The translations under genes and the position numbers were made by a program. From Escherichia coli (GTDB lineage Bacteria; Pseudomonadota; Gammaproteobacteria; Enterobacterales; Enterobacteriaceae), in NCBI GenBank assembly GCA_033901515.1, contig GCA_033901515.1_4984.1: a stretch of 43,029 nt of DNA; one strand, 5' to 3'. Every line of letters begins with the position of its first letter. Position 1 is the stretch's first letter. Shown here piece after piece: positions 1-43,029 of this stretch. Below the pieces are notes generated by a model, which had not been told where the DNA came from, did no database searches, and worked only from the letters and a program-made list of their open reading frames with translations.

Positions 1-77
1 AGTTCCCTAAAACCCTCCTACTCCTGTAACATCATTTCTTAATAGCTTTCGAATGAAAGTAAAGGTGAAGGGATAGC
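1..77. repeat. Terminal direct repeat, left copy (identical to 42953..43029)
   Basis: Bases 1-77 (agttccctaaaaccctcctactcctgtaacat...aaaggtgaagggatagc) are repeated exactly at 42953-43029; the match stops at the window edges. Confidence 0.9.
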
Positions 78-296
78 CAAAGAGATAGCGCCGGATAGCG
101 CTGGATAGTGGGAGTGCGCCCTAGTGGGGAGCGCGCAGCGTAGCATAGAATCGGCACAATGTAAAGCACTAGCGATAGCACCACGGCGCACTAGGCGGCC
201 CGCTATGGCCCACACTATGGCCCCACAATGCTGGCACTGGAAGCCCGCAATAGGCGCACAAAATAAGCAAGACGGAGCGCGTCCCCACGGCCCACC

Positions 297-329
297 TAGT
301 GCCTCCCTAGTGCCTCCCTAGTGCCCCTA
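297..329. repeat. Tandem 11-bp repeat (tagtgcctccc x2 plus a degenerate third unit)
   Basis: Direct reading of 297-329; non-coding terminal region. Confidence 0.8.
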
Positions 330-440
330 CAAGGAGCGCATAGCAATAGGCATAGGATAGCACCAGCGATAGCCATTAAGCCGCGCAGCGAGCTTCTGCG
401 GCCCTCCTGGTGCGCCCTAGGCGGCCATATAGACGTCCAG

Positions 441-464
441 CCATCTAGCCATCTAGCCATCCAG
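441..464. repeat. Tandem 9-bp repeat (ccatctagc x2.5)
   Basis: Direct reading of 441-464. Confidence 0.8.
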
Positions 465-470
465 ACGGCA

Positions 471-481
471 CCCCCCCCCCC
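471..481. repeat. Homopolymer C run of about 11 nt
   Basis: ggca-ccccccccccc-tcc at 467-484. Confidence 0.8.
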
Positions 482-602
482 TCCTTTATACGCTAGACAC
501 CCCCTATGGGGGCAATTGGGCGCGTTGAGGGTGAGGGAGGGCCTCGCGTGAGTTTAATAAATTTCAGGTCCAGGTATAGACGTGCACCCAGAGCCCCTAC
601 AG

Positions 603-6626: not shown

Positions 6627-8950
6627 TATATAGTCCCCCAAGCTTGTCTGTATACAGCGTAATGCAACGCACTATTTAGTAGGGATGTATAGTCCCCCGC
6701 TACGAACGCCTGACTAGCCTCATCCCACTTACGTACCACAGAGTAAGATGCAGCAACGCTGTGAACTTTATAGTAAGCACCTCCTACTAAAATAAACTCC
6801 CCAGCACTTAGTCCGGACGATCCCAATGCTATAACCGTCTCGTTTGCAACTATGCTGTTATATAGAGAGTAGGCTGGACCCCAACCGCTATTGGATGGAA
6901 GGGTCCCTTCCCCGCGTACGAAATTATCCTCCCCTACTGTAGCGGAGTACATGCAGTATGGCGCCTCTGCCTTAAACCTATAGAACCGGGTATTGCCACT
7001 GGATGGGTACCCCCTAGGCGTAGTATTGTATGGGATGCCGTTTGTTTGCACTCCCCGATAATATTGGCGCTCCATATAAGAGTAAACACAGCCATTTGAG
7101 GTCTTAGGCACATACAGGAAGCACCTACCGATATTCTCGTGTGTGTTCCTGCCTATATGTACATAAATCATCCCCCCGGTAGTCGCAATAGAATCTATAC
7201 AGTTACTGAACATGTTTGAGTCAATGTTGCAGTAACCGACAGCGTTCTTCATCCGTACACCTTGGCTTGAGGTCGAGGACGCCCCAATAAATGTATTAGA
7301 TTTAACGTTGACTTGATACGCAGCTGTGTTTATACGGTTTAAGAATACCCCCGAGTTTGAAAACATTTCGAACCTGCAGCCTACTACGTCTGCGTTACCG
7401 CAAGACTCTAGAAACACCCCCACGGATACGTTGCGAGCCACTACTCCGCTGATTACTACACTATTCGCATAGCCTTGAGTAGTGGATGAGCCCTCATTCC
7501 CGAAGATATCTATAGCATTGTCCGTAATATTCTGTAGGATACAATCTGATATGACTGCACCATCTGGACGCTCACACTGTATTCCTATGTACCCAGTGTT
7601 AGTCACTACACAACCACGCACTGTCAGATTAGAGCACCCATAGGTGCCTGCACCTGCCCGCCTAAAGTAGAGGCCCCCGGAAGGACTACTAAGTACGCGC
7701 ACGCCTTCACACACCACGTTAGTGGAGTCGAGTATATTAACGCACGTAATACCAGTACCAGCATTCTGTGCAACGTTACCGTCGAAGGTTATATTTGAGA
7801 TTGTGACAGAATCCGCACTGCCGTCCCAGTTGGTCAATATAGCCCCAGAAGAAGTTCCGCCAACACCGCCATTCAGGGTTATAGTCCCCCCACCGGTGAG
7901 AGTCACCCCAGAGCGTATATTTAGGGCGGACCGACCAGCAGATAGCTCACCAGCAACCGCCAAACTGTTAGAGTTTAGGGATACACGGTAATGCCCGGTG
8001 GCTAGCACCGTAGTAGGACCTGAACCTCTAACAGCATTAATATGTGCAGCATCCAGGGCAGCCTGCAAAGCCATACGCCAATCCCCGGTACTATCCGCAT
8101 AGGCTTCTGGATAGATGAATGGTACTCCACCTAAGTAGTTAAATCCATTATCCGAACTTAGCAGCCCTAAAATACTTGCAACTGCACCTGTGTCAACATC
8201 GGTATCTACACCAATAGTCATATCTACTAAGGTGCCTGCTGGTACAGTTTCTGCGAACGTCACTGTGCCGTTACGGATACTATAAGAATAGCCCGCGGTC
8301 TGAGTTACTCCATTTAACCTAATCTTAGCCTTAGTAAATGGTACTCCTGGGGTAATGGTGTTCGTGTCAGCTGGCACTACAGTCCACCACGGGAAGCTAT
8401 TAGTGTTAGCATTGAAGAACGTCTGCTCTAGGTTGGTAGTGCGTATATCCAGAGCGTCATCTGCAGCTTTGCGAGCAGCTGCCTCTGCGTCAATACGCGC
8501 GTCCAGGCGAGCATCCCCGGCATCAACATACTGCTTATTAGCAGCGTCGCGTGCATCCACAGGGTCACCCAGGTTAGTGATGCGGTAACGGTGCATGTTA
8601 ATATCGCCATAGAAACCCTCGATAGAGCGCCCTTCAACCAGCTCTTGAGCCAGGTGCAGGAACTGCGTATTCTGGGTATCTACGTTACCTTCAATGAACG
8701 GGGCACCACTAGCAAATTCAATGTAGAGGTACTCTCGTGCAGTCTTACGAATAAGAAGCACCACTGTCTCTGCAGACAGTGGGGAGTTCAGACGAATGTT
8801 GGTGGAGCTGGTCCAAGTGAAGGCTGTAGTCTCAGAACCATCTAAGTAAACGTGAATATAAGATTTATCCAGGTACTCGATATCACACTGGATATCCCGA
8901 GTACCTGTAGGCTTTACCGACTCTTGCCAGCTGTATGCCATATTAATCAT
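6626..8950 (-). CDS. Tail fiber / tailspike with T7 gp17-like N-terminal anchor and beta-helix-like body
   Basis: 774 aa; N-terminus (DIEYLDKSYIHVYLDG ... HRYRITNLGDPVDARDAANKQYVD) resembles the T7 gp17 N-terminal tail-attachment domain from memory; remainder is Gly/Ser/Thr/Asn-rich repeats (NITFDGNVAQNAG ...). Confidence 0.75.
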   Translation of the reverse strand: MINMAYSWQESVKPTGTRDIQCDIEYLDKSYIHVYLDGSETTAFTWTSSTNIRLNSPLSAETVVLLIRKTAREYLYIEFASGAPFIEGNVDTQNTQFLHLAQELVEGRSIEGFYGDINMHRYRITNLGDPVDARDAANKQYVDAGDARLDARIDAEAAARKAADDALDIRTTNLEQTFFNANTNSFPWWTVVPADTNTITPGVPFTKAKIRLNGVTQTAGYSYSIRNGTVTFAETVPAGTLVDMTIGVDTDVDTGAVASILGLLSSDNGFNYLGGVPFIYPEAYADSTGDWRMALQAALDAAHINAVRGSGPTTVLATGHYRVSLNSNSLAVAGELSAGRSALNIRSGVTLTGGGTITLNGGVGGTSSGAILTNWDGSADSVTISNITFDGNVAQNAGTGITCVNILDSTNVVCEGVRVLSSPSGGLYFRRAGAGTYGCSNLTVRGCVVTNTGYIGIQCERPDGAVISDCILQNITDNAIDIFGNEGSSTTQGYANSVVISGVVARNVSVGVFLESCGNADVVGCRFEMFSNSGVFLNRINTAAYQVNVKSNTFIGASSTSSQGVRMKNAVGYCNIDSNMFSNCIDSIATTGGMIYVHIGRNTHENIGRCFLYVPKTSNGCVYSYMERQYYRGVQTNGIPYNTTPRGYPSSGNTRFYRFKAEAPYCMYSATVGEDNFVRGEGTLPSNSGWGPAYSLYNSIVANETVIALGSSGLSAGEFILVGGAYYKVHSVAASYSVVRKWDEASQAFVAGDYTSLLNSALHYAVYRQAWGTI

Positions 8951-11900
8951 CTCCGAAGTTATTGATGATAGCTCGCGTAGGTGCGAATTCCTGGATTAAC
9001 GGGACCTGTTTAGTGAAGGTCTGGATATCCATATCCCCAGTAGCCAGGGCTTGCACTGCACCCAGCAGACCAGTGACGTAACCCATAGATGCCAGAGAGT
9101 GGCGCGGTGAGTCCCCAGTGAAGATATCCTGCAGAAGCGAGATACCGCCAATGGCGCTCATACCCATAACTGACTCAGCGACAAGTTTCTGAGTATCGAC
9201 CTCTTTACCGTCCATACCGTGCTTAGCCATAGTTGCTAGAAGCATCAATGGGAACTGGTATGCCATGATGTGTGCAACCCCAATCCACCCAGCATCGTTC
9301 AGCTCTCGGCGCAGAATCTTGTTGGTGGCAGCCAGGGCGAAGCTCTGGTAGCCGACAATTACTTTGCCGATAGGGTTGAACTGGGCGAAGTGTGAGGTCT
9401 CACCGGTACGTACCTGCTGTACCAGGTAGTCCATCATACGCGTACCTACCACCTCAACTTGCATTTGCAGGTCCGGCTGGAACATAGCACCAGGGTTAGC
9501 CTTGTTGGCCGCGATAGCACGGTCCGCAACGTCGCGAGTAAGCCCGAAACGTTCCAGACGCTTAAACGCCTCAGCGTCCCCTTTGAACATCCGCTGGAGC
9601 TCGTCCGCTACAATACCTGAGTTAAGGTTAACCTGCAGTCGATGTACCATACTCATTCCGTTGATGTGACGCGCAGCCTGTCCAATGTTCTGGGTGACGT
9701 TAAACCATGAGGCTTGACGGGTCAGATCCAAGTTATCGTCTGCATAGGTATTCAACCAACGGAAGCGCATCTCCTTCTGAATACTACCACGTAGGATTGC
9801 ATCCAGACGACTAGCCATATCCGGAGTGCGAATAGCTACGGAACCTTCTTTAAACCAAGGCTGCTCACGCATACCACGCAGCACTCGGGACATACCAAAC
9901 TCTTTCAGCGCTAGGGCGATGTCAGTAAGCTGGTACAACCCGGAGTTCTTGAGCATGGTAGCGTTGGCCATGTTACCAGCTGCACGGAGCAGGTCCGGCA
10001 TTTGACCGGCATCGGCTGGTGCCCCACCTAAGATAAAGTCGATGGTGTCATTAACGGTCTTCTCCCACTTACCGGAATCAGCCAGAGCGTGCTTGGACTC
10101 ATTAATCATCGTCTCTAGTGTTTTTAGGTCAGAGACTCCGGCATAAGCCATACCTACACGACCTGACATTCGGTTAGTGTAACCGTGCATAACCTTAGCT
10201 ACATCAGTATCCATCAGATCCTGCATGCGCATAACCTGGCCATCTACGATGTACTCTTTGTCCATGTTGAAGCGGGTACGTTGACGGAGGTTCTTAGCAG
10301 GCGAGGTAGCACCGGATTCTCGGACATTACCTGCCAAGAAACTCTGGATTGCACTCTCGTCTACGCCAGCATTACGCATAACCATGACTACTTCGTCGTT
10401 ACCCATACCGTTGATGAGTTGCTTCCACATAGGACCAGAAGCCGAGGAGCGCCCGTTATAGATACCGTCAACCATCTCCTTAGCAACGCGCTGAACAACC
10501 TCAGGTTCCATAGACGGGTACACATCACGCAATGCCTGGCGGAATAAATCTCGGTAGTTATCCAGGGAGCGACCGTTCGCAATACCTTGGCGCATCTTAT
10601 CGTAGCTGTACTGGCGCGGGAAATAGTAGTCTGATTTAACCAGAGTACCGTCATCCACTAAACCGGCAGCGGTCATGTGATCATGCCACTTACTGGCCCA
10701 ACCAGAGTTGCGATACGCCTCAACAAGCGGAACTAAGTCAGAGTCCGGCAGAGGCACGGGGCGTCCGTTAACCTCAGCACTGTATGCAGAGTCCAGGTAA
10801 CGGCCTAAGCGGTCTTCCAAGTCAGCTCGTGCTGCTCTGAAGTTGCTACGATGGAAGAAGCGGTCCAGGAAACCTACACCCTTATCCTTGAGGGCACCGA
10901 GTATAGCGTCTTCAACTATACTAGCACTAGCATCCATTTCCAAGGTAAGGTTACGCTTAAAGTCCACCACAGACGGTTTACGACCGCCTACAGCAGTAGC
11001 ATCAGATACTAGTAAGCGTGCGAGGTCCTCACTACCCTCTGCGATGTTATCATACAAGGAGAACATAGTGGCGAGCTTACGCTTAGCAGTGTCCATCATA
11101 GCTTGGGCCTGCAAGGCCTCGTTCTTAACTGATGTACCTGCCAAGTCCTGGAAGGACTCACTCCTGAAGCTCTGAGCTTGGTCTGCGTAGTCCTTTGCGG
11201 TCCACTTGACAGCGTCCTCGTACGCGTCCAGAACATCCTCCAGAGCAGACCCCTTGGTGCGAACCCCTAGGGCGTTCATGATGTATTCACCAATCTGGCG
11301 AAGCATGCTTTTACCAGTAGGGGATTTAGTTCTAGAGAGGTACTCTACCCACTCAGGGCTGTCTCCCAGCCCGGCCAGCATTTCGTGCACATCACTTGCA
11401 TAATACTTGAATTTATCACTAAGAGTTGAATCTGCTGCTATTGCAGCGCGCACCTCTTCCAGCTTACTGGCAATTTCCGGATTCTGCTTAATAGCTCTGG
11501 TGGTGGCAGCGTGAATCAGTTCGTGCACTGCTACTCGGCTAGTGTCCGCATCCATAGCACGCAGAGCATCCCCGGCAGTAGTCCAGGTACTTCCGTTCGC
11601 TTTCTTAGGGGCACGTAAAGATACAAAACCCCTATCAGTTGTTGATGCTGGTGAAAACCCGTAGTGGCTACGGTTAGAAGAACCGGCCACCAGTTTAAAA
11701 TCAATGTCCTGTACTGCATCACCCAGGGTGTCCAGGATAGCCTTCTGACCTTTAGATAAGTGTTCAGAGGTCTTGAGGAAACGGACTACATCCTGCGCTT
11801 TCATGTTAACAGCGGCGGTGTTATTTCGGCGAACTTGGATAGGTTCATCCAGTACCTTAGTGAGGATTGTGTCTCCCTCTCCTACTCCTGTAACATTAGC

Positions 11901-12641
11901 ATCCCTCGCTGTACGAGTTGTGGGCGCGTCCGGGTCAAACATAGGCTCACGCCCAGTACGCGCCTTTGCTGCCGCTTTAGCAGCCTTAGACATGTCCCAG
12001 AGCTGGTCTAGTCCAGCTACACCTGCTACCAGAGCAGTGACTGCAGCAGACTGCCCCAACTGGTCCTGCGCATAGACAGCTGTACCTACATCCGCTGCAC
12101 GGATAGCAGTGCGTACTGCTAAGCCAGCACGACCAGCAACACCTGCTGCCGACATCGGGGCCAGGATAAATGGGGCGTCCCCAGCCAACGCACCAGCGAA
12201 CCCAGCTACGGTGTTATCAGACATCTGACGGTCACGGTCACGCTGTTCTAGCATAGCCTGAATGCGGTAATTATAATCATCCAGGGACACCGCCCCGTGC
12301 AAGTAATCAATCTCTTCCTGATTCGGAGTATAGAGCTTAGCACGGGAGTCAGTGCTTAGTTGCTTCTTAGCATCAAAACCCTGCTCTGGAATGAATGCCG
12401 GGGCAGAGGCTTTGCGGATAGCTGCAGCGATGGTGCTATTGCCCATACCAGAAGCAAAGCTCTCTGCAGCTGTAGTAGCAGGAGTCTTGGCCTGCGCTAG
12501 TAAGGAGGCACGCTCCAGTGCATTTAATCCGTCGTCACCGGCATCGTTCCAATCTATACGCGCAGGCGCAGGTTTAAGGGTTGTACCCTTAGCAGAATCC
12601 TTTTCCTGTGGATTCGGTTCTTGGTTCAGAAATTGAGCCAT
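8943..12641 (-). CDS. Internal virion (ejectosome) protein, gp16-like
   Basis: 1232 aa, largest ORF; position after the gp14/gp15-like ORFs as in T7; contains a zincin-like VAVHELIHAA motif. Confidence 0.7.
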   Translation of the reverse strand: MAQFLNQEPNPQEKDSAKGTTLKPAPARIDWNDAGDDGLNALERASLLAQAKTPATTAAESFASGMGNSTIAAAIRKASAPAFIPEQGFDAKKQLSTDSRAKLYTPNQEEIDYLHGAVSLDDYNYRIQAMLEQRDRDRQMSDNTVAGFAGALAGDAPFILAPMSAAGVAGRAGLAVRTAIRAADVGTAVYAQDQLGQSAAVTALVAGVAGLDQLWDMSKAAKAAAKARTGREPMFDPDAPTTRTARDANVTGVGEGDTILTKVLDEPIQVRRNNTAAVNMKAQDVVRFLKTSEHLSKGQKAILDTLGDAVQDIDFKLVAGSSNRSHYGFSPASTTDRGFVSLRAPKKANGSTWTTAGDALRAMDADTSRVAVHELIHAATTRAIKQNPEIASKLEEVRAAIAADSTLSDKFKYYASDVHEMLAGLGDSPEWVEYLSRTKSPTGKSMLRQIGEYIMNALGVRTKGSALEDVLDAYEDAVKWTAKDYADQAQSFRSESFQDLAGTSVKNEALQAQAMMDTAKRKLATMFSLYDNIAEGSEDLARLLVSDATAVGGRKPSVVDFKRNLTLEMDASASIVEDAILGALKDKGVGFLDRFFHRSNFRAARADLEDRLGRYLDSAYSAEVNGRPVPLPDSDLVPLVEAYRNSGWASKWHDHMTAAGLVDDGTLVKSDYYFPRQYSYDKMRQGIANGRSLDNYRDLFRQALRDVYPSMEPEVVQRVAKEMVDGIYNGRSSASGPMWKQLINGMGNDEVVMVMRNAGVDESAIQSFLAGNVRESGATSPAKNLRQRTRFNMDKEYIVDGQVMRMQDLMDTDVAKVMHGYTNRMSGRVGMAYAGVSDLKTLETMINESKHALADSGKWEKTVNDTIDFILGGAPADAGQMPDLLRAAGNMANATMLKNSGLYQLTDIALALKEFGMSRVLRGMREQPWFKEGSVAIRTPDMASRLDAILRGSIQKEMRFRWLNTYADDNLDLTRQASWFNVTQNIGQAARHINGMSMVHRLQVNLNSGIVADELQRMFKGDAEAFKRLERFGLTRDVADRAIAANKANPGAMFQPDLQMQVEVVGTRMMDYLVQQVRTGETSHFAQFNPIGKVIVGYQSFALAATNKILRRELNDAGWIGVAHIMAYQFPLMLLATMAKHGMDGKEVDTQKLVAESVMGMSAIGGISLLQDIFTGDSPRHSLASMGYVTGLLGAVQALATGDMDIQTFTKQVPLIQEFAPTRAIINNFGDD

Positions 12642-18966: not shown

Positions 18967-19003
18967 CAAAAAAAGCCCCCGGCACCCGAAGGCACCAGGG
19001 GCG
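18967..19003 (-). terminator. Rho-independent terminator downstream of the capsid region (T-phi-like position)
   Basis: Minus-strand RNA GCCCCUGGUGCC-UUCG-GGUGCCGGGGGC followed by UUUUUUU (plus A-run 18968-18974); about 12-bp stem with G-U wobbles and UUCG tetraloop. Confidence 0.7.
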
Positions 19004-21147: not shown

Positions 21148-22743
21148 TTAGCCCGGTAACAGGCCTAGTTGTTGTCCTGCTACGGTAGGATCCGCTGCCT
21201 GGAGATCTTGTACCTGAGACTGTGCTTGTGCTGCTGATGCCGCCGCTGCATTATCTTGAACTTGCTGCTTCTCTTGCAGTTGCTCTTCTGTGAGCATGAA
21301 CGGTCCACTTACAATACCGTATGCATCCAAGTACCAATCTACGCATGCATCCTCATTAAAGCGGGGAGTAAGCTGTTTGAGCACAGGAATAGCCAGCTGC
21401 ATAGCCTGGGTAGCTTCTAGCAGTTTATCTGCTGCTGCTGCTTTAGCTAGTGCTGCAGTACCTACCATCACGTTGATATCCACTACACCCTCGGTGAGGT
21501 ACACCTTGAACTTAGGATATGCCACGATAGTATACAGGTACGCGAGCTTACGCAGCCAGGAGTTGCTGAGGATGCTGAATCCACCACCCATAGCGTACTC
21601 TGCCTCTTTAGCATTCTGACGAATCTCATAAGCAGTTACACGCTCACCCTGTCGAGCATTGCCGGTGTACATAAACGCACGAGCCAGTTTCTGCTCAAGC
21701 ACCTGAATGTCGCTAGCAATCCACTGAATCTTTTGAGCTGCACCACCCTCGTAAGCTGTTACAGGGGACTTGGTGTTACCATTACTACCACCACCACCAA
21801 CCTGTACGGCCTCACCAGTCTCGGCTTGAGAGAACTCGTCCACATCCAGTCCAGAACTAGCATCGACCATAGGGATAAGGCGTGAAGCCTCAATCTCGTA
21901 GTTGGTCAACGCTTCGGTCAGCACAGACAGTCGCGCAAAGTCGCCCGCATAGTCTTCCACCAGACCGCGTCCGTAGTGTTCACCGTTAACCAGGTTCCAC
22001 ACCAATACGTTATACGGAAGTTCCAGCTCAGGGTAGGTGCTGCTCTCGCCTAGGCGACGGCCATCAACTTCTTGATACACCTCATAGCTTACTGCTTCTT
22101 CTCCATTTGGAAGGTGCTTAATCTTACGACAAGCGGCAGTGTAGATATCAATGTCGCTGTATGGGTCTCGACCATTGTAGTGTGCTTTTTGAATGTCTTC
22201 TGGGAGGTCCTGGATGCTGGCGCGCTCTTTGATAATGAGTCGCAGCACGTTCCCGCTACCATCCCTTCGAACGGTAAAGTTACGGACCGAGTAGATAATA
22301 GACTTCCCGGTTCTTTCATCGATGTACTCCAATGCGTTCCCGGTGATAAGCAGCAACTTCACAGCTTGAAGCTTAGCGGCATACCCATCCTTCTCGAATA
22401 CCTTCTGAGAGGCAGTATTCTCTACCTCGGATAAACGGGATTCTGCAGTGCTAGAACTTCCTAGGCTACTAATAAAGTTGTCAAGGGCTGCACTCTTAGA
22501 GAACCGGAAGAAGCTAGTGCCTTGTGGGAACAACGCCCCTACAATTTTAGTCGCTGCAGTATTGACTAGCTGAGCACCTGTACTCTGATAGTCTCGACTA
22601 AGCTGCATGCGTCGCCCATCAGTGTAAAGCTCTCGGGTAAAGATTGTAGGTAGCGTCCACTCAGCAAATTTCTCTGACGCATCCAGTACGCCAGCATCCT
22701 GATCCCCCAGGAACAGCTCTGCTAATGTCTTTTTATAGTCCAA
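21148..22743 (-). CDS. Portal / head-tail connector protein (gp8-like)
   Basis: 531 aa (T7 gp8 is 536 aa); apparent TTG start at 22741-22743 with strong RBS AAGGAGGAAG; no in-frame ATG in the first ~60 codons. Confidence 0.8.
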   Translation of the reverse strand: MDYKKTLAELFLGDQDAGVLDASEKFAEWTLPTIFTRELYTDGRRMQLSRDYQSTGAQLVNTAATKIVGALFPQGTSFFRFSKSAALDNFISSLGSSSTAESRLSEVENTASQKVFEKDGYAAKLQAVKLLLITGNALEYIDERTGKSIIYSVRNFTVRRDGSGNVLRLIIKERASIQDLPEDIQKAHYNGRDPYSDIDIYTAACRKIKHLPNGEEAVSYEVYQEVDGRRLGESSTYPELELPYNVLVWNLVNGEHYGRGLVEDYAGDFARLSVLTEALTNYEIEASRLIPMVDASSGLDVDEFSQAETGEAVQVGGGGSNGNTKSPVTAYEGGAAQKIQWIASDIQVLEQKLARAFMYTGNARQGERVTAYEIRQNAKEAEYAMGGGFSILSNSWLRKLAYLYTIVAYPKFKVYLTEGVVDINVMVGTAALAKAAAADKLLEATQAMQLAIPVLKQLTPRFNEDACVDWYLDAYGIVSGPFMLTEEQLQEKQQVQDNAAAASAAQAQSQVQDLQAADPTVAGQQLGLLPG

Positions 22744-22752
22744 GCTTCCTCC

Positions 22753-23016
22753 TTACAGACCCAGGGGATTGCTCTGCCCTGCCTGTCGCCGTTTCTTCTG
22801 CTCAGACGTAATTGCATCTGCAGATGCAGAGGCCGCGCCGGATGGGTCTACCTCTGCAATATTATCAGCTGCGCTGTTAGCCCCTAAGGCTGCCTGCTGT
22901 TTTGCTGCTTCAGCCTGCTGCTCAGCCATGCGCTGCTGTTGCTCTAATCCTTCATTATCAGTAAGGCCGAGCATATCCGTGGCCTTACCTAATAGTTTAC
23001 CTAATCCACCACTCAT
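22753..23016 (-). CDS. Hypothetical protein (87 aa, Gln/Ala-rich)
   Basis: ATG 23014-23016, RBS GAGG; overlaps upstream stop as ATGA. Confidence 0.5.
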   Translation of the reverse strand: MSGGLGKLLGKATDMLGLTDNEGLEQQQRMAEQQAEAAKQQAALGANSAADNIAEVDPSGAASASADAITSEQKKRRQAGQSNPLGL

Positions 23017-23453
23017 TTTGACCTCACTAAATGATAAGTTGTTTTATACGTGTTCGGAGATACCCCACGACTTATAGCTATACGTCCAGCTCGCAGGCAC
23101 TCAGCCAGTATGTGCAGCCCCTTCATAACTACAGTCATTGCTCCACTATTCCCCGGTTTCAGTACGAAGAAGTCTGTGAACAATACGGGTTCTGCATAAT
23201 GGCAGTCCTTTACAGCTTCTGGGTAGTAACTGACAGCACCAACTAAACCACCTTGGGAGTCATAGACTCCTAGTATATGCTGTTTACCTAGTATACTTTC
23301 CAGTACTCTACAGTAGTGTTGCTCCAGGGACAGGCCCCGACTAATGCCGTGGCCTAGTTCGTGCAGTTGCTTCACTGCGTCTGTAATATCGTCAGACTTA
23401 TGCAGAACCTTGAGAGTATAGTCGGAAGTTTTACTAGTGTGTTTTAACTTCAT
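23013..23453 (-). CDS. Hypothetical protein (146 aa), first gene after the RNAP block
   Basis: I prefer ATG 23451-23453 (MKLKHTSK...) preceded by GGAGTAGGA; the tool start at 23516 would overlap the upstream gene by 40 nt. Confidence 0.5.
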   Translation of the reverse strand: MKLKHTSKTSDYTLKVLHKSDDITDAVKQLHELGHGISRGLSLEQHYCRVLESILGKQHILGVYDSQGGLVGAVSYYPEAVKDCHYAEPVLFTDFFVLKPGNSGAMTVVMKGLHILAECLRAGRIAISRGVSPNTYKTTYHLVRSK

Positions 23454-23475
23454 TCCTACTCCTGTAACATTAAAT
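23454..23475 (-). promoter_or_regulatory. Conserved 17-bp motif also present in the terminal repeat; candidate phage promoter or end-related site
   Basis: Plus 23454-23470 tcctactcctgtaacat is identical to plus 16-32 and 42968-42984; minus strand reads ATGTTACAGGAGTAGGA immediately before the ATG at 23453. Confidence 0.4.
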
Positions 23476-23476
23476 T

Positions 23477-23815
23477 TTAGTAGGGTGCCCAAACCGGTAT
23501 ACCGGCCTTCCTGCACAGTTCAACCATACCGGCGGTGCCTCTTCCTCCAGGAAAGGCGACACAGTATTCTGGAAAGGCTAGGGATATCATAGCGGCGTTC
23601 CTGCGCATACCTGCAGATTTACCTTGTGCATCCCACAGGGCAGGCATACGCAGAACAAAAATACCAGATTCCAAGGCCCACCTATCTGCCAGTGCGTCAG
23701 CTCCCCTGGCATTCCCGTGTATCACTACAGATGGTTTGTTGGGTAGCATATCCATTGCGGTCTTTAGCGCTAAGTAGTCTGTGTAATCGCGCCCGCCTGT
23801 TACTAGTACTCGCAT
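23477..23815 (-). CDS. SLOG/LOG-like Rossmann-fold nucleotide-binding protein (DUF2493-like)
   Basis: 112 aa; VLVTGGRDYTDY, GNARGADALADRWA and FPGGRGTAGMVE resemble SLOG superfamily signatures (LOG PGGxGTxxE-like). From memory, not verified by search. Confidence 0.45.
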   Translation of the reverse strand: MRVLVTGGRDYTDYLALKTAMDMLPNKPSVVIHGNARGADALADRWALESGIFVLRMPALWDAQGKSAGMRRNAAMISLAFPEYCVAFPGGRGTAGMVELCRKAGIPVWAPY

Positions 23816-23824
23816 ACAATACTC

Positions 23825-26293
23825 TCAGCAGAAGAAGAACGGAGATTCTAGCACTTGCCGGATGTCCAGAGTACCAACCGCAGGCATATCCAGGTCCGTC
23901 AGGTCTGCCCCCGCTGCAGCAGCAGCTCTAGTAATATCTCCCAGAAGGTCGTGCTCCTCATACAGCTTCACAAACTGTTCGCGGATGTGTCGGTGCAGAG
24001 CATCAACATCGGATGCATGAGTAGCCAAGGAGTCGTGAATAGGCACAATATCAAGTCCCTCCGCCGCGCAGAGTACCATCATCAAGTGCGTACTATCCAG
24101 ACTGTGCACAAAGTTCGGAGCGATCCCAGAGGCTGCCTTGCGCTTATTACACGTTTTAAAATCACGGTTATGCACCAGTACAGCGGATAGGTTCATACAG
24201 TCAATACGGACACGTACCTCTTCCCTCTGAGAGTACCGGTTCATCACCAGCCCGCCCAGCGGGGTCTTCCACTGCAGGTGCTGGCTAGCAGGTACGCGCC
24301 TAGCTAGATTCTGCAGATACCCCATAGCTGCGGCAGCTGCCGGGTTAGCTTCCTCAATAGCGCTACGCATTCTAGGGGCAAGGTAGCAGGATAAGTTCCA
24401 GAGACTGTGCGTGTCTGTTCCTTCATACCCCTCTTCACAGGCCCCTGCAAAGATGTAGTCGCTGCAGCTGCGCACCGTGGCGCTGTAGAAGTAGGTCATG
24501 CTAGGACGCTTGGTCATGCTTCGCGTGATTTCGTTCTCTCTCCAGTATGTGCTCTGGATAACGAAATCCTCTTTGTCCAGGTCCAGTATCACCTTCTCGT
24601 CCGTACGGCGCTTCACGTCCATATACAGGTCCGCTTTCTTGTCGTTACCCTCCCAGTACAGGTTAGTCAGGCGCCCGCCTACAGGGTCTCTCAGGAGCGC
24701 TGAGAGGTGCTGACCACCTGAGTTTGTAGCATCCATAGCAACTGGGATTCGGCTAATATACTCTTCTGGGCATCCAGAACGTACCGCATTAACCAAGTCA
24801 ATAGCGGCTGCCAGGAAGCACCAAGGGCTGTCGGCGGAGGTAAAAGCAGGGCAATCAAAAGGAGAATCCGCGAGCTGCTCAATCTCTGCAAAGTTTGCAT
24901 CAACCCAAGCTGCACGGTCTTCGAATAGGGTTTTGTCATAACCAAAGCAGGTAGCGACGTGCACTTTAAGCCAGAATAACCCCCTCTCTCCCAGAGGTTT
25001 ACCTCGTCCGAATTCAAGAAGTGCCTTCTGCAAATCAGAACCTTGTGGGTGCAGAGAGGACTTGAAGTACAGCCGGTACCGCCAATCCACACAGGTTGGG
25101 AAGTACAAGGCTTTCTCATCTTTGAATTCCTCTGCCATCTCTAGCGTGGTCAATAGGCTACGTAGTTGCGACACACGTTTACGGTCGGCGCTGTACCATA
25201 AGGACATACGCGTCTTCCACTCTCCGAAGCGGTCGAGTTCCTCCTCGGTGTAATTCTCTTTTGGTACACCATCTAAGTACCACTCAGGTTTCGGCTCTGG
25301 CACTGAGCGCGGCATACCTACACCAATACCTAAGGCCCGTGCTTCTTGTACCAGTTCCAGTACTCGCTTATTAATGCGATAAGGAGTTTCCTGCGCCTTA
25401 TTAAGTGCCTTCTTGATACCGTCCGCAGACTTAAATGCTTCCGCTACTTCACGCAGTCTGGCGCGGTCAATGTGCGAGTTGTGGTACGTCCCACGGTTAT
25501 CGATTGGGGTGAGGTATCCACCATCCCACAGTGTAGTATGCGACACCGGCGGTACCAGCATCGGAGGCTTCATAGTTACAGTATCAGCAGATTCCACTAA
25601 CTGCTGAAATGCTTCCATAACATTATCTGCGGGATAGAGCATACTCAAGTTCCCGCTACCAGTCTTCCACTGGAACAGCCCTGTCTCAAACACTGCGGAA
25701 CACAGCAGACGTCCCACAGAAATATTCTGAGCGTTGGTCCAAGGCTCATGCCCATAGTGCACGTTCTCAGCGCTGGCGCGGAGCGTACGCAGAATGTGCG
25801 TAGGCGACTTAGTACGGCGCTCAGTGAGGTATTCATATACCCGGTCCATATACGCTGGGGCAACATTACGTAGCTGCAATGCCAGCAGCTCTGATTGTAC
25901 GTTCCTACCCAGTGCAGACATTACCGCCTGAGCAGTCTGGCGGCGACTAGCGGACTCGCCAGGGGCAACACTGAACGCCTCAAACATTGTGCACAGGCTC
26001 AGGGTAGTCAGGACATCCAAGGGAACTAAGCGCAAGAACCGGCGGTACTTTCCGCCAATACCTGGGGCTTTGGTGTTTCGCATTTCATCAATAGCTGTAG
26101 AGGCCACGTCATACGCAGAGGTGAGCATGCGCTGAGTCATTGGCAGGTTCATAATCCCGCCGTTCTGCAGAGCATCAGTAATTAACTTACGAGCACGCTC
26201 AATACCTCGAATTTTATAGGTCTCTTCAAGCTCCAGCTGGCGCTGCACCAGTGCTTCCTCTGGTACTACAACCGTATTCAGGGCGCTAATCAT
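23825..26293 (-). CDS. Single-subunit DNA-dependent RNA polymerase (T7 RNAP family)
   Basis: 822 aa; PVAMDATNSGGQHLSALLRD aligns with T7 RNAP [20 protein letters not shown] (catalytic Asp); IVPIHDSLATH aligns with T7 HDSFGT (second catalytic Asp); RBS AAGGAG. Confidence 0.9.
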   Translation of the reverse strand: MISALNTVVVPEEALVQRQLELEETYKIRGIERARKLITDALQNGGIMNLPMTQRMLTSAYDVASTAIDEMRNTKAPGIGGKYRRFLRLVPLDVLTTLSLCTMFEAFSVAPGESASRRQTAQAVMSALGRNVQSELLALQLRNVAPAYMDRVYEYLTERRTKSPTHILRTLRASAENVHYGHEPWTNAQNISVGRLLCSAVFETGLFQWKTGSGNLSMLYPADNVMEAFQQLVESADTVTMKPPMLVPPVSHTTLWDGGYLTPIDNRGTYHNSHIDRARLREVAEAFKSADGIKKALNKAQETPYRINKRVLELVQEARALGIGVGMPRSVPEPKPEWYLDGVPKENYTEEELDRFGEWKTRMSLWYSADRKRVSQLRSLLTTLEMAEEFKDEKALYFPTCVDWRYRLYFKSSLHPQGSDLQKALLEFGRGKPLGERGLFWLKVHVATCFGYDKTLFEDRAAWVDANFAEIEQLADSPFDCPAFTSADSPWCFLAAAIDLVNAVRSGCPEEYISRIPVAMDATNSGGQHLSALLRDPVGGRLTNLYWEGNDKKADLYMDVKRRTDEKVILDLDKEDFVIQSTYWRENEITRSMTKRPSMTYFYSATVRSCSDYIFAGACEEGYEGTDTHSLWNLSCYLAPRMRSAIEEANPAAAAAMGYLQNLARRVPASQHLQWKTPLGGLVMNRYSQREEVRVRIDCMNLSAVLVHNRDFKTCNKRKAASGIAPNFVHSLDSTHLMMVLCAAEGLDIVPIHDSLATHASDVDALHRHIREQFVKLYEEHDLLGDITRAAAAAGADLTDLDMPAVGTLDIRQVLESPFFFC

Positions 26294-30667: not shown

Positions 30668-31096
30668 TTAGGCCTCCTTAATAATTTGACTGACGCGAGA
30701 TTGTACTACACCGTATTTCGCAGCAAGCACGTACTGATTAGCGTGTTTAGAACGAGGAACATACTCCCGGCGAATCTGCTCTACAGTAGACTTGGAAATC
30801 TTATGAGCTTCTCGGCCCCTATCTACCTTATCTTGCATGTTGTCTGCCCTGCTGCCCACCAGAAGATGCTCGGGATTAATACAACGGGGATTGTCACATG
30901 AGTGTCTAATCACCTGCCCGTCTATATCCGCATAGGTTATACCGTGGTGGCGGACGTAAACCACTCGATGATATAGGCGCATCTTTCCGTCACGTTTAAC
31001 TAACGCATACCCTCCTTTTAGAAGGCTCCGGCTTTTGCCGTGGTCTATACATTCTGACACTGCATGCCTCTCTTGTGTTGTTCCTACTCGTATCAC
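30668..31096 (-). CDS. HNH endonuclease (free-standing, homing-type)
   Basis: GGYALVKRDGKMRLYHRVVYVRHHG ... VIRHSCDNPRCINPEHLLVGSRADN is an HNH_3-like pattern, with a C-terminal HTH-like segment. Start uncertain: GTG 31096 or GTG 31060 (RBS GAGAGG). Confidence 0.75.
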   Translation of the reverse strand: MIRVGTTQERHAVSECIDHGKSRSLLKGGYALVKRDGKMRLYHRVVYVRHHGITYADIDGQVIRHSCDNPRCINPEHLLVGSRADNMQDKVDRGREAHKISKSTVEQIRREYVPRSKHANQYVLAAKYGVVQSRVSQIIKEA

Positions 31097-31223
31097 ATTA
31101 ATTCTCGGTAAATCACGGAATCAAGCCAGAGTCAACAAATAATTTTATTTAATTATCTACTTGACCCTGGTTAATTCTCATGTTACCCTAACCCCCCTAC
31201 ACCACCCAAGGGTCCACCTATCA

Positions 31224-31445: not shown

Positions 31446-33832
31446 TCTACTTTCTCCTTACTGTACATACTCATACCCATTTCAGCTTCCGCCGGGAACG
31501 GGACCTCACCAATGATGCCGTAGTTAGGCCAGAGCTGGTGGATACGCTTAGGTGCATCCTCCATACACTGCTTAACCAACAGGCTCGCCTCTCTGCCTAC
31601 TTCCGGATTAGCACTATCCAGATACAATGCATCGTGCACGTTCGTAATCAAGCACACCTGATTATCAAACCAATCACGTGCCAGCATTGCACGCAGAACC
31701 ATACCAGCTGCTACCGCCATCAGGAAGAACGCCTCGCCCTGACACCAGTAGTTAGCCATCTCGGTTTCCTTGTAGTCCATTACCTTCTGCTTACGCTGCC
31801 CAGGGACGACCTCCTTCCATTGCTCCTTCTGGCGGAAGCTGTAGCGTGCTCCTGCTGGACTAGTCCAGGTGCCGATGCGGTAGATGCGATAACTGCCATC
31901 ATCCGCTTGCTCCCGGTACATACGCCCCGCTGCCCCAGTGCGCTCTACCTCTTCCTTGACAACAGCGCGGAAGCCAATTGTTTGCGGGAACAGCGCAGCC
32001 TCGTTGTCCAAGAAAGCCTGTGCGAATTCCACCGTACATCCAGCAGCAAACGCAATCCCCTTAGCCGTAGCGCCATACTGGGCTGCAAAACTAGGAGCCT
32101 TAATACCTGTACGCATTGCCTTCCAAACCGGATGCAGCTCATGCTTCTTGTTGTGGCAGCGATCATATACTTCTTCATATGGTAATTTCTCACGGAAAGC
32201 TAGGCGGTAACAGTGCATATCGGTACCTGCCTGCAGCAACCCTAGTAGCTTAGTGTCTCCGGTGTGTACGCAGGACATGACCACTTCCAGCGCCGAGTAG
32301 TCAACTTCAGTGATGCGTCCGTTATCGCCGAATCGGCTGGTGAATACCTGCTTCACCTTGGATTTAGCCACCCCATCCCCATCCTCATCCGGGCGGGGTA
32401 GGTTCTGCAGGTTCGGGTTAGAACTGCTAAGGCGCCCAGTTACAGTGGCGCTGGTATTCAAACGGTGATGGATAATACCTGAACCGTCTTCTCGTTCTGG
32501 GATTACGTATTGCAGCATCCCCTTGCGCTCTTTGACACGTCCCTCAGAATCAAGAACCTCCCTTAAGTAGTAAGTTCCGGTGTCCTTCTCCAGAGCACCC
32601 AGCTCGTTCACCAATCGACAGAACTCAAATCCATGACGTGCTAAGGCTTCCATTGCATCTGTGCTGGTGCTGTAGACTGGTGTCCCATCCTGCAGGCACC
32701 GGGCTTGCCTGAACTCTCCACGCTCAGCATACTTCTCTCGAAGTACTTCAGGGAGTTCTTGGATGTTAACCAGGCCCGGACAGAAGTAAAGGTCGTCCTC
32801 CCACTTAAGTTTCTCCTCCTCTGTATCCATACGGAATACTTTGGGAAGTCCCTTGTTCTTACCGGACTTGTATAGCGCTCTCGGATACGTCCACTCCGGC
32901 TGCCAGTCGGACACATCAATGTACTGTACAGTTCCGTTGACGTCTGCTAAGTAGGCGTCGTACTTAACGTACTGCGGAGGGTCATAAGGAACCTTCTTGC
33001 GGTACTTGATAGGTCCACCGTATACCAGTGCAGACATATGAAAGTCCGAGCCGAAGTTGAAATCCAGTGTCTCCGGCAAGTCCTTCGGTATGTACTGCTG
33101 CAGCTCCTGTTTAATCTCCAGGATACGCTGCTCCTGCTCCTCTTGGTTCTTGCGAGCAATAGGCATATTCACGAACAGACCAAACCATTCACAGTATGCC
33201 CAAGCCAGCAGCGCGTCCATGCGTTCCCACACGTACTGCATCTGATTACGCTGGGCGAACGTAGCGCACTGGCCGTAGAAGCACAGGGCTGTGTTCGGGA
33301 TATCCCCGTTAACTAGGTAGTCGTGCAGCAGCACCGGGTCAATCTGGGAGGTTAACACGCCCTGCTCCCAGAGAATCTTAACCCCATCTACTTTGTGCGT
33401 ACCACCATACTTAGGAGCCGTCTCGTCCAGTGACGGATACATGCTCTGAAAGTCCGAGGCGATGTATTCCCCGTGCATTGTGCAGAACACCCTGCCGCCG
33501 CGCTTGAGGAAGGCTTCGAACTGTTGTCTCTGGTACGTGAGGAACCAGGAGATTTCGTAGGCGGCATTGTGCGCAACAATAAGCCAGCAGTCCTCCGGGA
33601 TATTGAGCCATCCCGCAGGTCCTCCTGCACTGTTCGCACGAATAAAGTCCTCTCGGGACTCGTAGCGTACTGCCTGTGTAATACCCACAGTTGTTGTTCC
33701 GTCTGCCTGCGTCGTATCAATGCGCCACGCTGACTCCACAACGTAGTTATCCGGGCAGTACGGGCTTGCTTTAGAGCCGTAATATTCATGGTTCTCTGTC
33801 TCTAAGTCAATGTGCATTATACTGGTTGTCAT
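31442..33832 (-). CDS. DNA polymerase, family A (T7 gp5-like) with 3'-5' exonuclease domain
   Basis: 796 aa; Exo I HIDLETEN; motif B RTGIKAPSFAAQYG; motif C ITNVHDALYLD; RBS GGAGGT. Confidence 0.9.
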   Translation of the reverse strand: MTTSIMHIDLETENHEYYGSKASPYCPDNYVVESAWRIDTTQADGTTTVGITQAVRYESREDFIRANSAGGPAGWLNIPEDCWLIVAHNAAYEISWFLTYQRQQFEAFLKRGGRVFCTMHGEYIASDFQSMYPSLDETAPKYGGTHKVDGVKILWEQGVLTSQIDPVLLHDYLVNGDIPNTALCFYGQCATFAQRNQMQYVWERMDALLAWAYCEWFGLFVNMPIARKNQEEQEQRILEIKQELQQYIPKDLPETLDFNFGSDFHMSALVYGGPIKYRKKVPYDPPQYVKYDAYLADVNGTVQYIDVSDWQPEWTYPRALYKSGKNKGLPKVFRMDTEEEKLKWEDDLYFCPGLVNIQELPEVLREKYAERGEFRQARCLQDGTPVYSTSTDAMEALARHGFEFCRLVNELGALEKDTGTYYLREVLDSEGRVKERKGMLQYVIPEREDGSGIIHHRLNTSATVTGRLSSSNPNLQNLPRPDEDGDGVAKSKVKQVFTSRFGDNGRITEVDYSALEVVMSCVHTGDTKLLGLLQAGTDMHCYRLAFREKLPYEEVYDRCHNKKHELHPVWKAMRTGIKAPSFAAQYGATAKGIAFAAGCTVEFAQAFLDNEAALFPQTIGFRAVVKEEVERTGAAGRMYREQADDGSYRIYRIGTWTSPAGARYSFRQKEQWKEVVPGQRKQKVMDYKETEMANYWCQGEAFFLMAVAAGMVLRAMLARDWFDNQVCLITNVHDALYLDSANPEVGREASLLVKQCMEDAPKRIHQLWPNYGIIGEVPFPAEAEMGMSMYSKEKVE

Positions 33833-35502: not shown

Positions 35503-36284
35503 GTTAATGCCTCCAGTATCTCTTTGATTTCTGCGTCCTTAGGATCCGCAGCGAAGTGGTGTTCTCGGCACTGCATGAACGGGCGCAGTGCTCGGCGTGC
35601 TGCTGCTACCCCAGCATGCCCCGCTGGGTCGTTGTCCAACATTAGAATCACTTCAGGGCGATTCTGAATCAGCCAGGCCCTTAACTGCGTGGGCAAGCGT
35701 GTACCCAGCATAGCTATAGCCTGCACGTTCAACGCACTGTAGCTCGTAACTGCGTGCTGTATCTTCAGGGCTGAGAGTAAGTCCTCTGTGAGCACGACCT
35801 TTAGAGGAGCGCCCGCAGCTACACCCGGTGCTACGGCAGGTCCCACGGCAGCGAAGGGTATTGGCTGGCCGTACATTACCCACTTCGGTTGCTGTCGGGC
35901 ATGAACAGCACGGCCCAGTACAGCACCCCCGACACGGAATATTATCCGCTGTTTCTCTTTGCTCCATTCTGCATCCCCCACCATTTCAGGCATGATTCCT
36001 TTTGAAGCAAGGAATCCGTAAATAAAACTCTGCGTTTCCGCAGGCGCTTGGCTAATGCAAATTGCATCTGCAGGTGCAGAGGGCTGCACCCTCGGCTCTT
36101 CCTGTAACTGTATGCGCTGGTACTGCTTGCGCTCCTTGCCTACCTGTTTGCAGCGGTGGCAATAGTATTCCCAGGCATCCGGGTTATTGTAGAGCACCCC
36201 GGCGGCGTCCCTGCCGCAGCACCGAAAGCGTGCCCTCTGCCCCACGGCCAGGCGCTTGCACGCTCTAAGCCAGGGCTGGTCCAT
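35493..36284 (-). CDS. DNA primase (zinc-ribbon plus TOPRIM)
   Basis: 263 aa; N-terminal Cys cluster FRCCGRD ... YYCHRCKQ; TOPRIM-like VVLTEDLLSALK and ILMLDNDPAGHAG. Confidence 0.7.
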   Translation of the reverse strand: MDQPWLRACKRLAVGQRARFRCCGRDAAGVLYNNPDAWEYYCHRCKQVGKERKQYQRIQLQEEPRVQPSAPADAICISQAPAETQSFIYGFLASKGIMPEMVGDAEWSKEKQRIIFRVGGAVLGRAVHARQQPKWVMYGQPIPFAAVGPAVAPGVAAGAPLKVVLTEDLLSALKIQHAVTSYSALNVQAIAMLGTRLPTQLRAWLIQNRPEVILMLDNDPAGHAGVAAARRALRPFMQCREHHFAADPKDAEIKEILEALTWT

Positions 36285-42724: not shown

Positions 42725-42787
42725 CTAGGGATAGCACTAGGGATAGCGCTATACAGCCAATGCTAACCAATACTAGCCAATGCTAAC
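42725..42787. repeat. Short direct repeats near the genome end (tagggatagc x2; agccaatgctaac x2)
   Basis: Direct reading of 42721-42790; GATAGC-type words also recur at 71-112 and 172-178. Confidence 0.7.
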
Positions 42788-42904
42788 TAATACCATCTAG
42801 CACTGCATAGAGCAGCACGCAGTGACGTAACGTAAGTGAAGTCACGGAGTGATGCGGTGACTATGTAGGTAATGCTTACTCCCTACGGTCGTAACATAGG
42901 GCAT

Positions 42905-42934
42905 TACTAGTGAATACTAGTGAATACTAGTGAA
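42905..42934. repeat. Tandem 10-bp repeat (tactagtgaa x3) abutting the terminal repeat
   Basis: Direct reading of 42905-42934, followed by degenerate tagtagtaagtagtatgt. Confidence 0.85.
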
Positions 42935-42952
42935 TAGTAGTAAGTAGTATGT

Positions 42953-43029
42953 AGTTCCCTAAAACCCTCCTACTCCTGTAACATCATTTCTTAATAGCTT
43001 TCGAATGAAAGTAAAGGTGAAGGGATAGC
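42953..43029. repeat. Terminal direct repeat, right copy
   Basis: Exact 77-bp copy of 1..77. Confidence 0.9.

Follow-up and report, generated by a model that had tools for sequence, protein, structure and literature searches.

The closest described system is that of Klebsiella phage KP34, the type species, whose RNA polymerase (RNAP) was purified by Lu et al. 2019 (Front Microbiol 10:2487, PMC6834552), with a transcription start site placed by 5'-RACE at position 22213, directly after the RNAP gene. The synthetic 16-mers S1 (TAATGTTACAGGAGTA) and S2 (TGATGTTACAGGAGTA) gave efficient in vitro run-off transcription by KP34 RNAP, the former representing KP34 positions 22197–22212 and 33721–33736 and the latter positions 475–490 (PMC6834552). 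A 14-mer common to S1 and S2 was much weaker, and a further, weak promoter W lay within the 3'-terminal part of the RNAP gene (PMC6834552). These assays covered selected KP34 fragments only (PMC6834552), and a literature search for start-site mapping in Drulisvirus returned none other than that of Lu et al. The PhageProm study catalogued 467 KP34-like promoters in 135 genomes (PMC11880802), and two specificity-loop groups have already been published (PMC4411677). An older "Kp34likevirus putative phage promoter", AGCCTATAGCGTCCTACGGGGCGCTATGTGAA, is a different sequence that was inactive according to Lu et al. (PMC6834552).

The window, i.e., the whole stretch of 43,029 nucleotides analysed here, is a Drulisvirus genome as judged from its database matches: the 7 kb around the motif matched 257 phage records, nearly all of them Drulisvirus (Autographiviridae, Slopekvirinae), with Escherichia phage Minorna and Shigella phage SFN6B as closest relatives (~93% nucleotide identity). 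Scanning the whole window for the 17-mer TCCTACTCCTGTAACAT returned exact plus-strand copies at 16–32, 23454–23470, and 42968–42984, exactly as an earlier note on this DNA had claimed, together with a fourth copy at 11880–11896 that the note had overlooked. The note had also suggested a scan with mismatches and had regarded recurrence by chance as very unlikely. Allowing up to 3 mismatches yielded five matches in the window, including the one at 11880–11896, vs. 0.09 expected, and five matches were reached in none of 100 shuffles. The recurrence of the 17-mer is genuine and not due to chance. Because all long open reading frames of the window lie on the minus strand, the relevant reading of the motif is the reverse complement, T(A/G)ATGTTACAGGAGTA with GG directly after it. 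Read in this way, 23472 to 23457 gives TAATGTTACAGGAGTA followed by GGAATG, 11898 to 11883 gives TAATGTTACAGGAGTA followed by GGAGAG, and both 34 to 19 and 42986 to 42971 give TGATGTTACAGGAGTA followed by GGAGGG. Every copy lies on the gene strand, no antisense copy was detected by scanning the window, and the 8-mer CCTACTCC is confined to the four places of the exact copies within the window. Because the ends of the window form an exact 77-bp duplication (1–77 = 42953–43029), the copies at 16–32 and 42968–42984 represent one locus, and the window contains three distinct promoter loci.

Each of these three loci has a single counterpart in KP34 (positions 475, 22197, and 33721), with the same orientation as the genes and with conserved flanks, which answers in the affirmative the question raised by the earlier note of whether the motif is kept at equivalent positions in related genomes. 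The 16-mer T(A/G)ATGTTACAGGAGTA followed by GGA is exact at all three. Because the copies in the window match KP34 S1, S1, and S2 and their flanks match the KP34 loci, the motif is an already characterised element, and its three strong copies are not novel. We therefore regard it as almost certainly the cognate strong promoter of a T7-like single-subunit phage RNAP of the KP34 type, with initiation at the following G. Promoter activity has been shown with KP34 RNAP on the identical sequence and is to be expected in the present phage as well. The proposal of the earlier note that a phage-RNAP promoter stands at the onset of the late region was borne out, the sequence there being the KP34 strong promoter at the homologous position. 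The two phages share the 16-mer, the GGA from +1 to +3, the three genome positions and their orientation, an RNAP that is 96% identical with an equal specificity loop, and a homologue of W at the matching place in the RNAP gene. They differ in their hosts, as the closest relatives of the window are the E. coli and Shigella phages Minorna and SFN6B, and in an extra 112-aa open reading frame of the window (23477–23815, minus strand) between the RNAP gene and the promoter. This open reading frame corresponds to Minorna gp23, annotated as "GTP-binding domain", and is present only in a subset of the relatives, in which the promoter follows the RNAP gene after ~356 nt vs. ~10 nt; some other relatives carry an HNH gene in its place.

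Beyond the RNAP block, one copy of the strong promoter S1 (TAATGTTACAGGAGTA) occupies 23457–23472 on the minus strand, with the G at 23456 as predicted +1, and is identical to KP34 22197–22212, flanks included. The first late gene, a homologue of KP34 p38, extends over 23013–23453 with its ATG at 23453, leaving a 3-nt leader from the predicted +1. Among the IMG/VR relatives covering this junction, the element was found in 62 out of 62, upstream of the conserved first late gene and in the three variants TAATGTTACAGGAGTA, TAATGTTACCGGAGTA, and TGAAGTTACCGGAGTA. The second S1 copy (11883–11898, minus strand; predicted +1 at 11882) is located inside the gene for a 1232-aa internal virion protein (8943–12641), where it encodes N-V-T-G-V-G in frame. 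It is homologous to KP34 33721–33736 in p48 and present in 52 loci. Third-codon positions were invariant in 5 of 6 cases inside this intragenic motif vs. 6 of 38 in its flanks (Fisher p = 0.002); the sixth position was 98% conserved, and position −7 is the A/C switch described below. The left-end promoter S2 (TGATGTTACAGGAGTA) at 19–34 (minus strand; predicted +1 at 18) is printed again at 42971–42986 by the 77-bp end overlap; it is identical to KP34 S2 at 475–490 with conserved flanks and points rightwards into the early region. Three copies of TACTAGTGAA follow just downstream of S2. In Minorna, the left-end promoter (L187, 42737, minus strand) reads TGATGTTACACGAGTA, with a G to C exchange at −6, a position that is otherwise invariant. 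Finally, a homologue of the weak promoter W (ACTCTGGACATCCGGCAAGT, 2 mismatches) is present at 23853–23872 on the minus strand, within the 3'-terminal part of the RNAP gene and at an offset from the RNAP stop codon equal to that of KP34 22144–22163. Because this site lies within a coding sequence, its conservation may only be due to coding.

The cognate polymerase is encoded in the window itself. The single-subunit RNAP gene (23825–26293, minus strand) codes for 822 aa, and its product is 96% identical to KP34 RNAP without gaps and aligns end to end with T7 RNAP (E about 1e-67). The T7 enzyme reads the promoter major groove with the β-hairpin side chains R746, N748, R756, and Q758 (PMC11880802). 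In the alignment, residues 703–706 of the window RNAP correspond to T7 Q758–I761 and R696 corresponds to T7 N748, by which residues 703–706 are the base-reading tip of the specificity loop. They are S703–L706 (SAVL, as in KP34), encoded at 24176–24187. The comparative analysis drew on IMG/VR loci, 65 of them surrounding RNAP homologues and 57 surrounding the gene for tail tubular protein B. These loci were retrieved by protein anchoring, which replaced a motif scan of IMG/VR. The scan had been run with GTTACMGGAGTAGGA, and among the matches listed were mostly chance ones in unrelated contigs. An unrelated 10.7-kb metagenomic contig (L071, IMGVR_UViG_3300020435_000035) has GTTACMGGAGTAGGA three times on a single strand, all within 430 nt (2431–2874).

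Across this set, promoter base −7 was A with SAVL at RNAP positions 703–706 and C with TI(M/L)R, and the post-RNAP sites split 30:30 without exception. The mutual information between −7 and residues 703–706 amounted to 1.0 bit, and this link is tighter than general relatedness because the best RNAP column outside the block reached only 0.66 bit. The covariation rests on essentially two loop types and therefore on few independent evolutionary events, although the other parts of the RNAP have visibly been reshuffled with respect to the loop. Among the loci spanning both the post-RNAP and the intragenic site, 19 combined SAVL with A at both sites, 19 combined TIxR with C at both sites, and none was discordant; the left-end site likewise has C in the C-type phages fHe-Kpn01, SU503, SU552A, and F19. 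The promoter has changed together with the DNA-reading residues of the RNAP in ~40–60 relatives and at independent sites. Covariation together with synonymous-site conservation is the behaviour to be expected of a DNA site read by a polymerase, and not of a coding or translational signal. Drulisvirus contains two natural RNAP/promoter specificity classes, SAVL with A and TI(M/L)R with C. This natural switch between −7 and residues 703–706 may be usable to engineer orthogonal RNAP/promoter pairs of the KP34 type. The covariation extends published observations (PMC4411677; PhageProm, PMC11880802) and opens no new question. Some C-type phages have the third upstream variant, TGAAGTTACCGGAGTA, both after the RNAP gene and at the left end; inside the virion protein gene, these phages retain TAATGTTACC. 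A more distant RNAP, 58% identical and with the different loop GLTKVVAY, is encoded on contig IMGVR_UViG_3300013307_000025 (L056), where two tandem copies of GAGACACGTT(G/A)TAGAG(G/A)GACA are located right after the RNAP gene (12451–12560) and a third one upstream (4423); this is presumably the contig's own promoter type.

The same data bear on a reading of the motif as a translation signal common to several genes, consisting of a Shine-Dalgarno sequence AGGAG plus spacer. At the late-gene junction, the ATG at 23453 follows AGGAGTAGGA, and in the Minorna record a portion of the motif is annotated as a ribosome-binding site for the gene that comes next. However, the left-end copy is not followed by a start codon, the copy at 11883–11898 lies in frame within a long gene, and the conserved part reaches 10 nt upstream of any Shine-Dalgarno sequence and covaries with the RNAP. 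We give this reading practically no probability; as a general explanation it is ruled out by the intragenic and left-end copies, and at most one copy would double as a ribosome-binding site, namely for read-through transcripts. The AGGAG Shine-Dalgarno sequence of the first late gene is found inside the promoter at 23457–23472. An mRNA started at this promoter is predicted to be nearly leaderless for the first late gene, with the ribosome-binding site contained only in read-through transcripts.

With the motif taken as the KP34-type promoter, a transcription scheme can be proposed in which early and middle genes would be transcribed by the host RNAP, among them the phage RNAP gene, which closes the middle region. 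Once produced from this middle mRNA, the phage enzyme would bind the double-stranded part from −16 to −5, with its specificity loop reading −11 to −7, would melt the GTA/GG junction, and would start rightward (minus-strand) transcripts at three places. Transcripts starting at 23456 would cover the head genes as far as an intrinsic terminator (GCCCCTGGTGCCTTCGGGTGCCGGGGGC followed by a T run; 18975–19002, minus strand), which is conserved, lies between the two S1 promoters, and is the Kp34likevirus terminator tabulated in PMC4411677. The start at 11882 would serve re-initiation for the distal genes, i.e., what remains of the gene for the internal virion protein as well as those for tail fibre, terminase, lysis, and tail spike, and would reinforce their transcription. 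S2, located close to the left end and ahead of the early region, would fire rightwards from 42970 (= 18), in a manner comparable to T7 φOL. In T7, φOL is a phage promoter just inside the left terminal repeat that is linked to replication and maturation. This division of labour among the three promoters is inferred from their positions, and so is the extent to which the intragenic and left-end copies are used in vivo, along with their relative strength. For annotation, the late transcription map would consist of three phage-RNAP promoters and one terminator.

The proposed system resembles the T7 class II/III promoters and φOL in its compact sites (~17–19 bp), in using a single polypeptide, in initiating with G, and in having one promoter just inside the left terminal repeat (φOL in T7). 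The β-hairpin of the specificity loop would read about −11 to −7 in both (cf. PMC11880802). In contrast, the promoter sequences are unrelated, the present genome has three strong promoters vs. 17 in T7, and the RNAP gene is located at the end of the middle region instead of the early region. The promoters of LUZ19 and phiKMV (GgtTATGTCACacACAnnGG; Putzeys et al. 2024, PMC10914365) occupy corresponding places, i.e., directly after the RNAP gene, within the gene for a large internal virion protein, and close to the left end, and an ATGTnAC block stands 14 nt from the GG start in both families. The region from −7 to −1 differs (ACACANN in LUZ19/phiKMV vs. AGGAGTA in the window). Copy number and orientation differ, too: in phiKMV, the experimentally supported LUZ19-type motif follows the RNAP gene as a tandem pair (20492 and 20678), is present inside gp37 (34956), and is antisense at the left end (727).

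The earlier note had counted two of the exact copies as lying in both copies of a terminal repeat and had considered an end-related site as an alternative to a promoter. The matches at 16–32 and 42968–42984 are exact, but they are not independent of each other, and the 77-bp duplication is most likely not the physical terminal repeat when compared with relatives. Terminal repeats have been annotated or mapped for KP34 (1–216, 216 bp) and fHe-Kpn01 (1–222, 222 bp). The KP34 repeat starts with CCCTCACCCTGAACGCGCC and ends with ...GTGCGCTC; in the window, the counterparts are CCCTCACCCTCAACGCGCC at 537 and ...GACGCGCTC ending at 275. The homology of both boundaries predicts a direct terminal repeat at about 275–537 (minus strand), of which the assembly contains one copy. 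By this homology to KP34 and fHe-Kpn01, the motif is located outside the physical repeat: S2 lies ~260 nt inward of the left repeat in both phages, and the motif lies ~241 nt inward of the predicted left terminal repeat in the window. We infer that the 77 bp are an assembler k-mer overlap of a circularised assembly; the window is probably such an assembly, opened at an arbitrary point and with the true repeat collapsed to one copy. That the ends of the window would be an assembly overlap rather than physical termini is relevant to annotation. A signal for packaging, for the terminal repeat, or for replication, postulated because one copy appears in the duplicated window ends, is extremely unlikely on these grounds. 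The T7 φOL precedent makes a secondary role of the left-end copy conceivable. Against an end-related signal, the mapped KP34 and fHe-Kpn01 repeats align to 275–537 with the motif ~241 nt further in, and the distance to the end amounts to 19.5 and 31 kb for the remaining copies, one of which lies inside a gene. The suggestion of an end-related site had relied on the 77-bp duplication being the terminal repeat, and the homology to relatives with mapped ends speaks against it. The non-coding ends are crowded with short tandem repeats (296–330, 440–470, 470–482, 42755–42793, and 42905–42944), comprising three copies of CTAGTGCCTCC, three of CCATCTAGCC, a C run of ~12, and 10-mers of the AGCCAATGCTAAC type.

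Apart from the three strong promoters, the window contains a degenerate copy, TAATGTGATACGAGTAGG, at 31083–31100 on the minus strand, in an intergenic region where the operon following the DNA polymerase block begins. Compared with S1, this copy is altered at −10, −8, and −6 and keeps the promoter parts from −16 to −11 and from −5 to +3. On the plus strand, it corresponds to 31082–31098 with 3 mismatches to TCCTACTCCTGTAACAT. The earlier note had correctly listed this copy, while the overlap with the HNH gene start that it reported applies only if the longest open reading frame (GTG at 31096) is used. A GTG at 31060, 23 nt downstream of the motif, is the likelier HNH start because of the homology to Minorna gp37 (MSMCIDHG vs. 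V/M-SECIDHG in the window) and a ribosome-binding site 6 nt upstream of it. The 24-mer TAATGTGATACGAGTAGGAACAAC was exact in 53 of the 57 loci where the site was found, whatever gene follows, and is also exact in KP34, Minorna, SFN6B, and fHe-Kpn01. Immediately upstream of the degenerate copy is a long AT-rich inverted repeat or hairpin at ~31108–31187 (RNA fold −45.5 kcal/mol, z = −3.7). The conservation clearly marks the site as functional DNA. No switching with the RNAP loop type was observed for it among the relatives, and a scan for σ70 consensus elements at this site returned nothing convincing (TAATGT as −10 with TTGATT as −35, i.e., 3/6 plus 4/6). Conceivable roles for the site are those of a weak promoter, a target of RNase III, or an element of the origin type. 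We consider it rather doubtful that it is a fourth, unreported phage-RNAP site, i.e., a promoter that has low affinity or is read in another way, with a possible coupling to replication initiation of the kind known from the T7 primary origin. A further related sequence from the earlier note, cctacggtcgtaacat at 42880–42895, is indeed present, but its similarity to ATGTTAC is specific to the window and absent from KP34, SFN6B, Minorna, and fHe-Kpn01. It was rejected as a promoter, being a similarity without conservation in relatives.

The last alternative is that the sites are recognised by a phage nickase, with single-strand interruptions in the virion DNA, either instead of or beside a promoter role. 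The earlier note had mentioned a nick consensus of the phiKMV group, and correctly so: it is given as 5'-CGACxxxxxCCTA/CTCCGG-3' (Kulakov et al. 2009, as quoted in PMC3517423). The antisense strand of the motif contains the 8-mer CCTACTCC, which is shared with this consensus, and that of C-type relatives has the 10-mer CCTACTCCGG, equal to its 3' half; moreover, both kinds of site occur on one strand only and in few copies per genome. The resemblance fails when the full consensus, the strand, the genomic positions, and the nick position of fHe-Kpn01 are considered. The full consensus CGACNNNNNCCTACTCCGG is absent from the copies; as the earlier note had already remarked, they have no CGAC part, the upstream bases being TAAA, TCTC, and AACT. 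When 3 mismatches to the complete phiKMV consensus were tolerated, the window gave a single match, at 13041 with 3 mismatches, which is at chance level. In phiKMV, the consensus is on the sense (plus, gene) strand at 6314, 13986, and 24128, in the intergenic regions after gp12, gp20, and gp31, whereas CCTACTCC of the window is antisense, i.e., on the opposite strand relative to the genes, and at different genomic positions. These phiKMV sites are the ones once annotated as putative phage promoters. The window sites are positional homologues of the phiKMV/LUZ19 promoters and not of the phiKMV nicks, and a nickase would leave the covariation with the RNAP loop unexplained. Finally, fHe-Kpn01, the one Drulisvirus examined for nicks, has three promoters containing CCTACTCCGG, yet its sole extra PhageTerm/S1 nuclease site is at nt 7873 in an unrelated motif, and no nick was detected at its promoter sites. 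A nick role of the motif, alone or beside that of a promoter, appears very unlikely from this comparison, which removes a tempting but wrong link to the phiKMV nick sites.

A 23-nt motif of a different kind occurs twice in the window, at 36060–36082 and 22810–22832 on the plus strand, in two unrelated genes, with the sense reading CCTCTGCA(C/T)CTGCAGATGCAATT. KP34, SFN6B, Minorna, and fHe-Kpn01 share both places, and the second one is conserved in 55 of 63 IMG/VR loci as well. The published nick and PhageTerm peak of fHe-Kpn01 at nt 7873 falls within the first copy of that phage (7866–7888), right at the position of the C/T difference between the two copies. The 23-nt motif is distinct from the promoter and represents a candidate for the nick motif of Drulisvirus.
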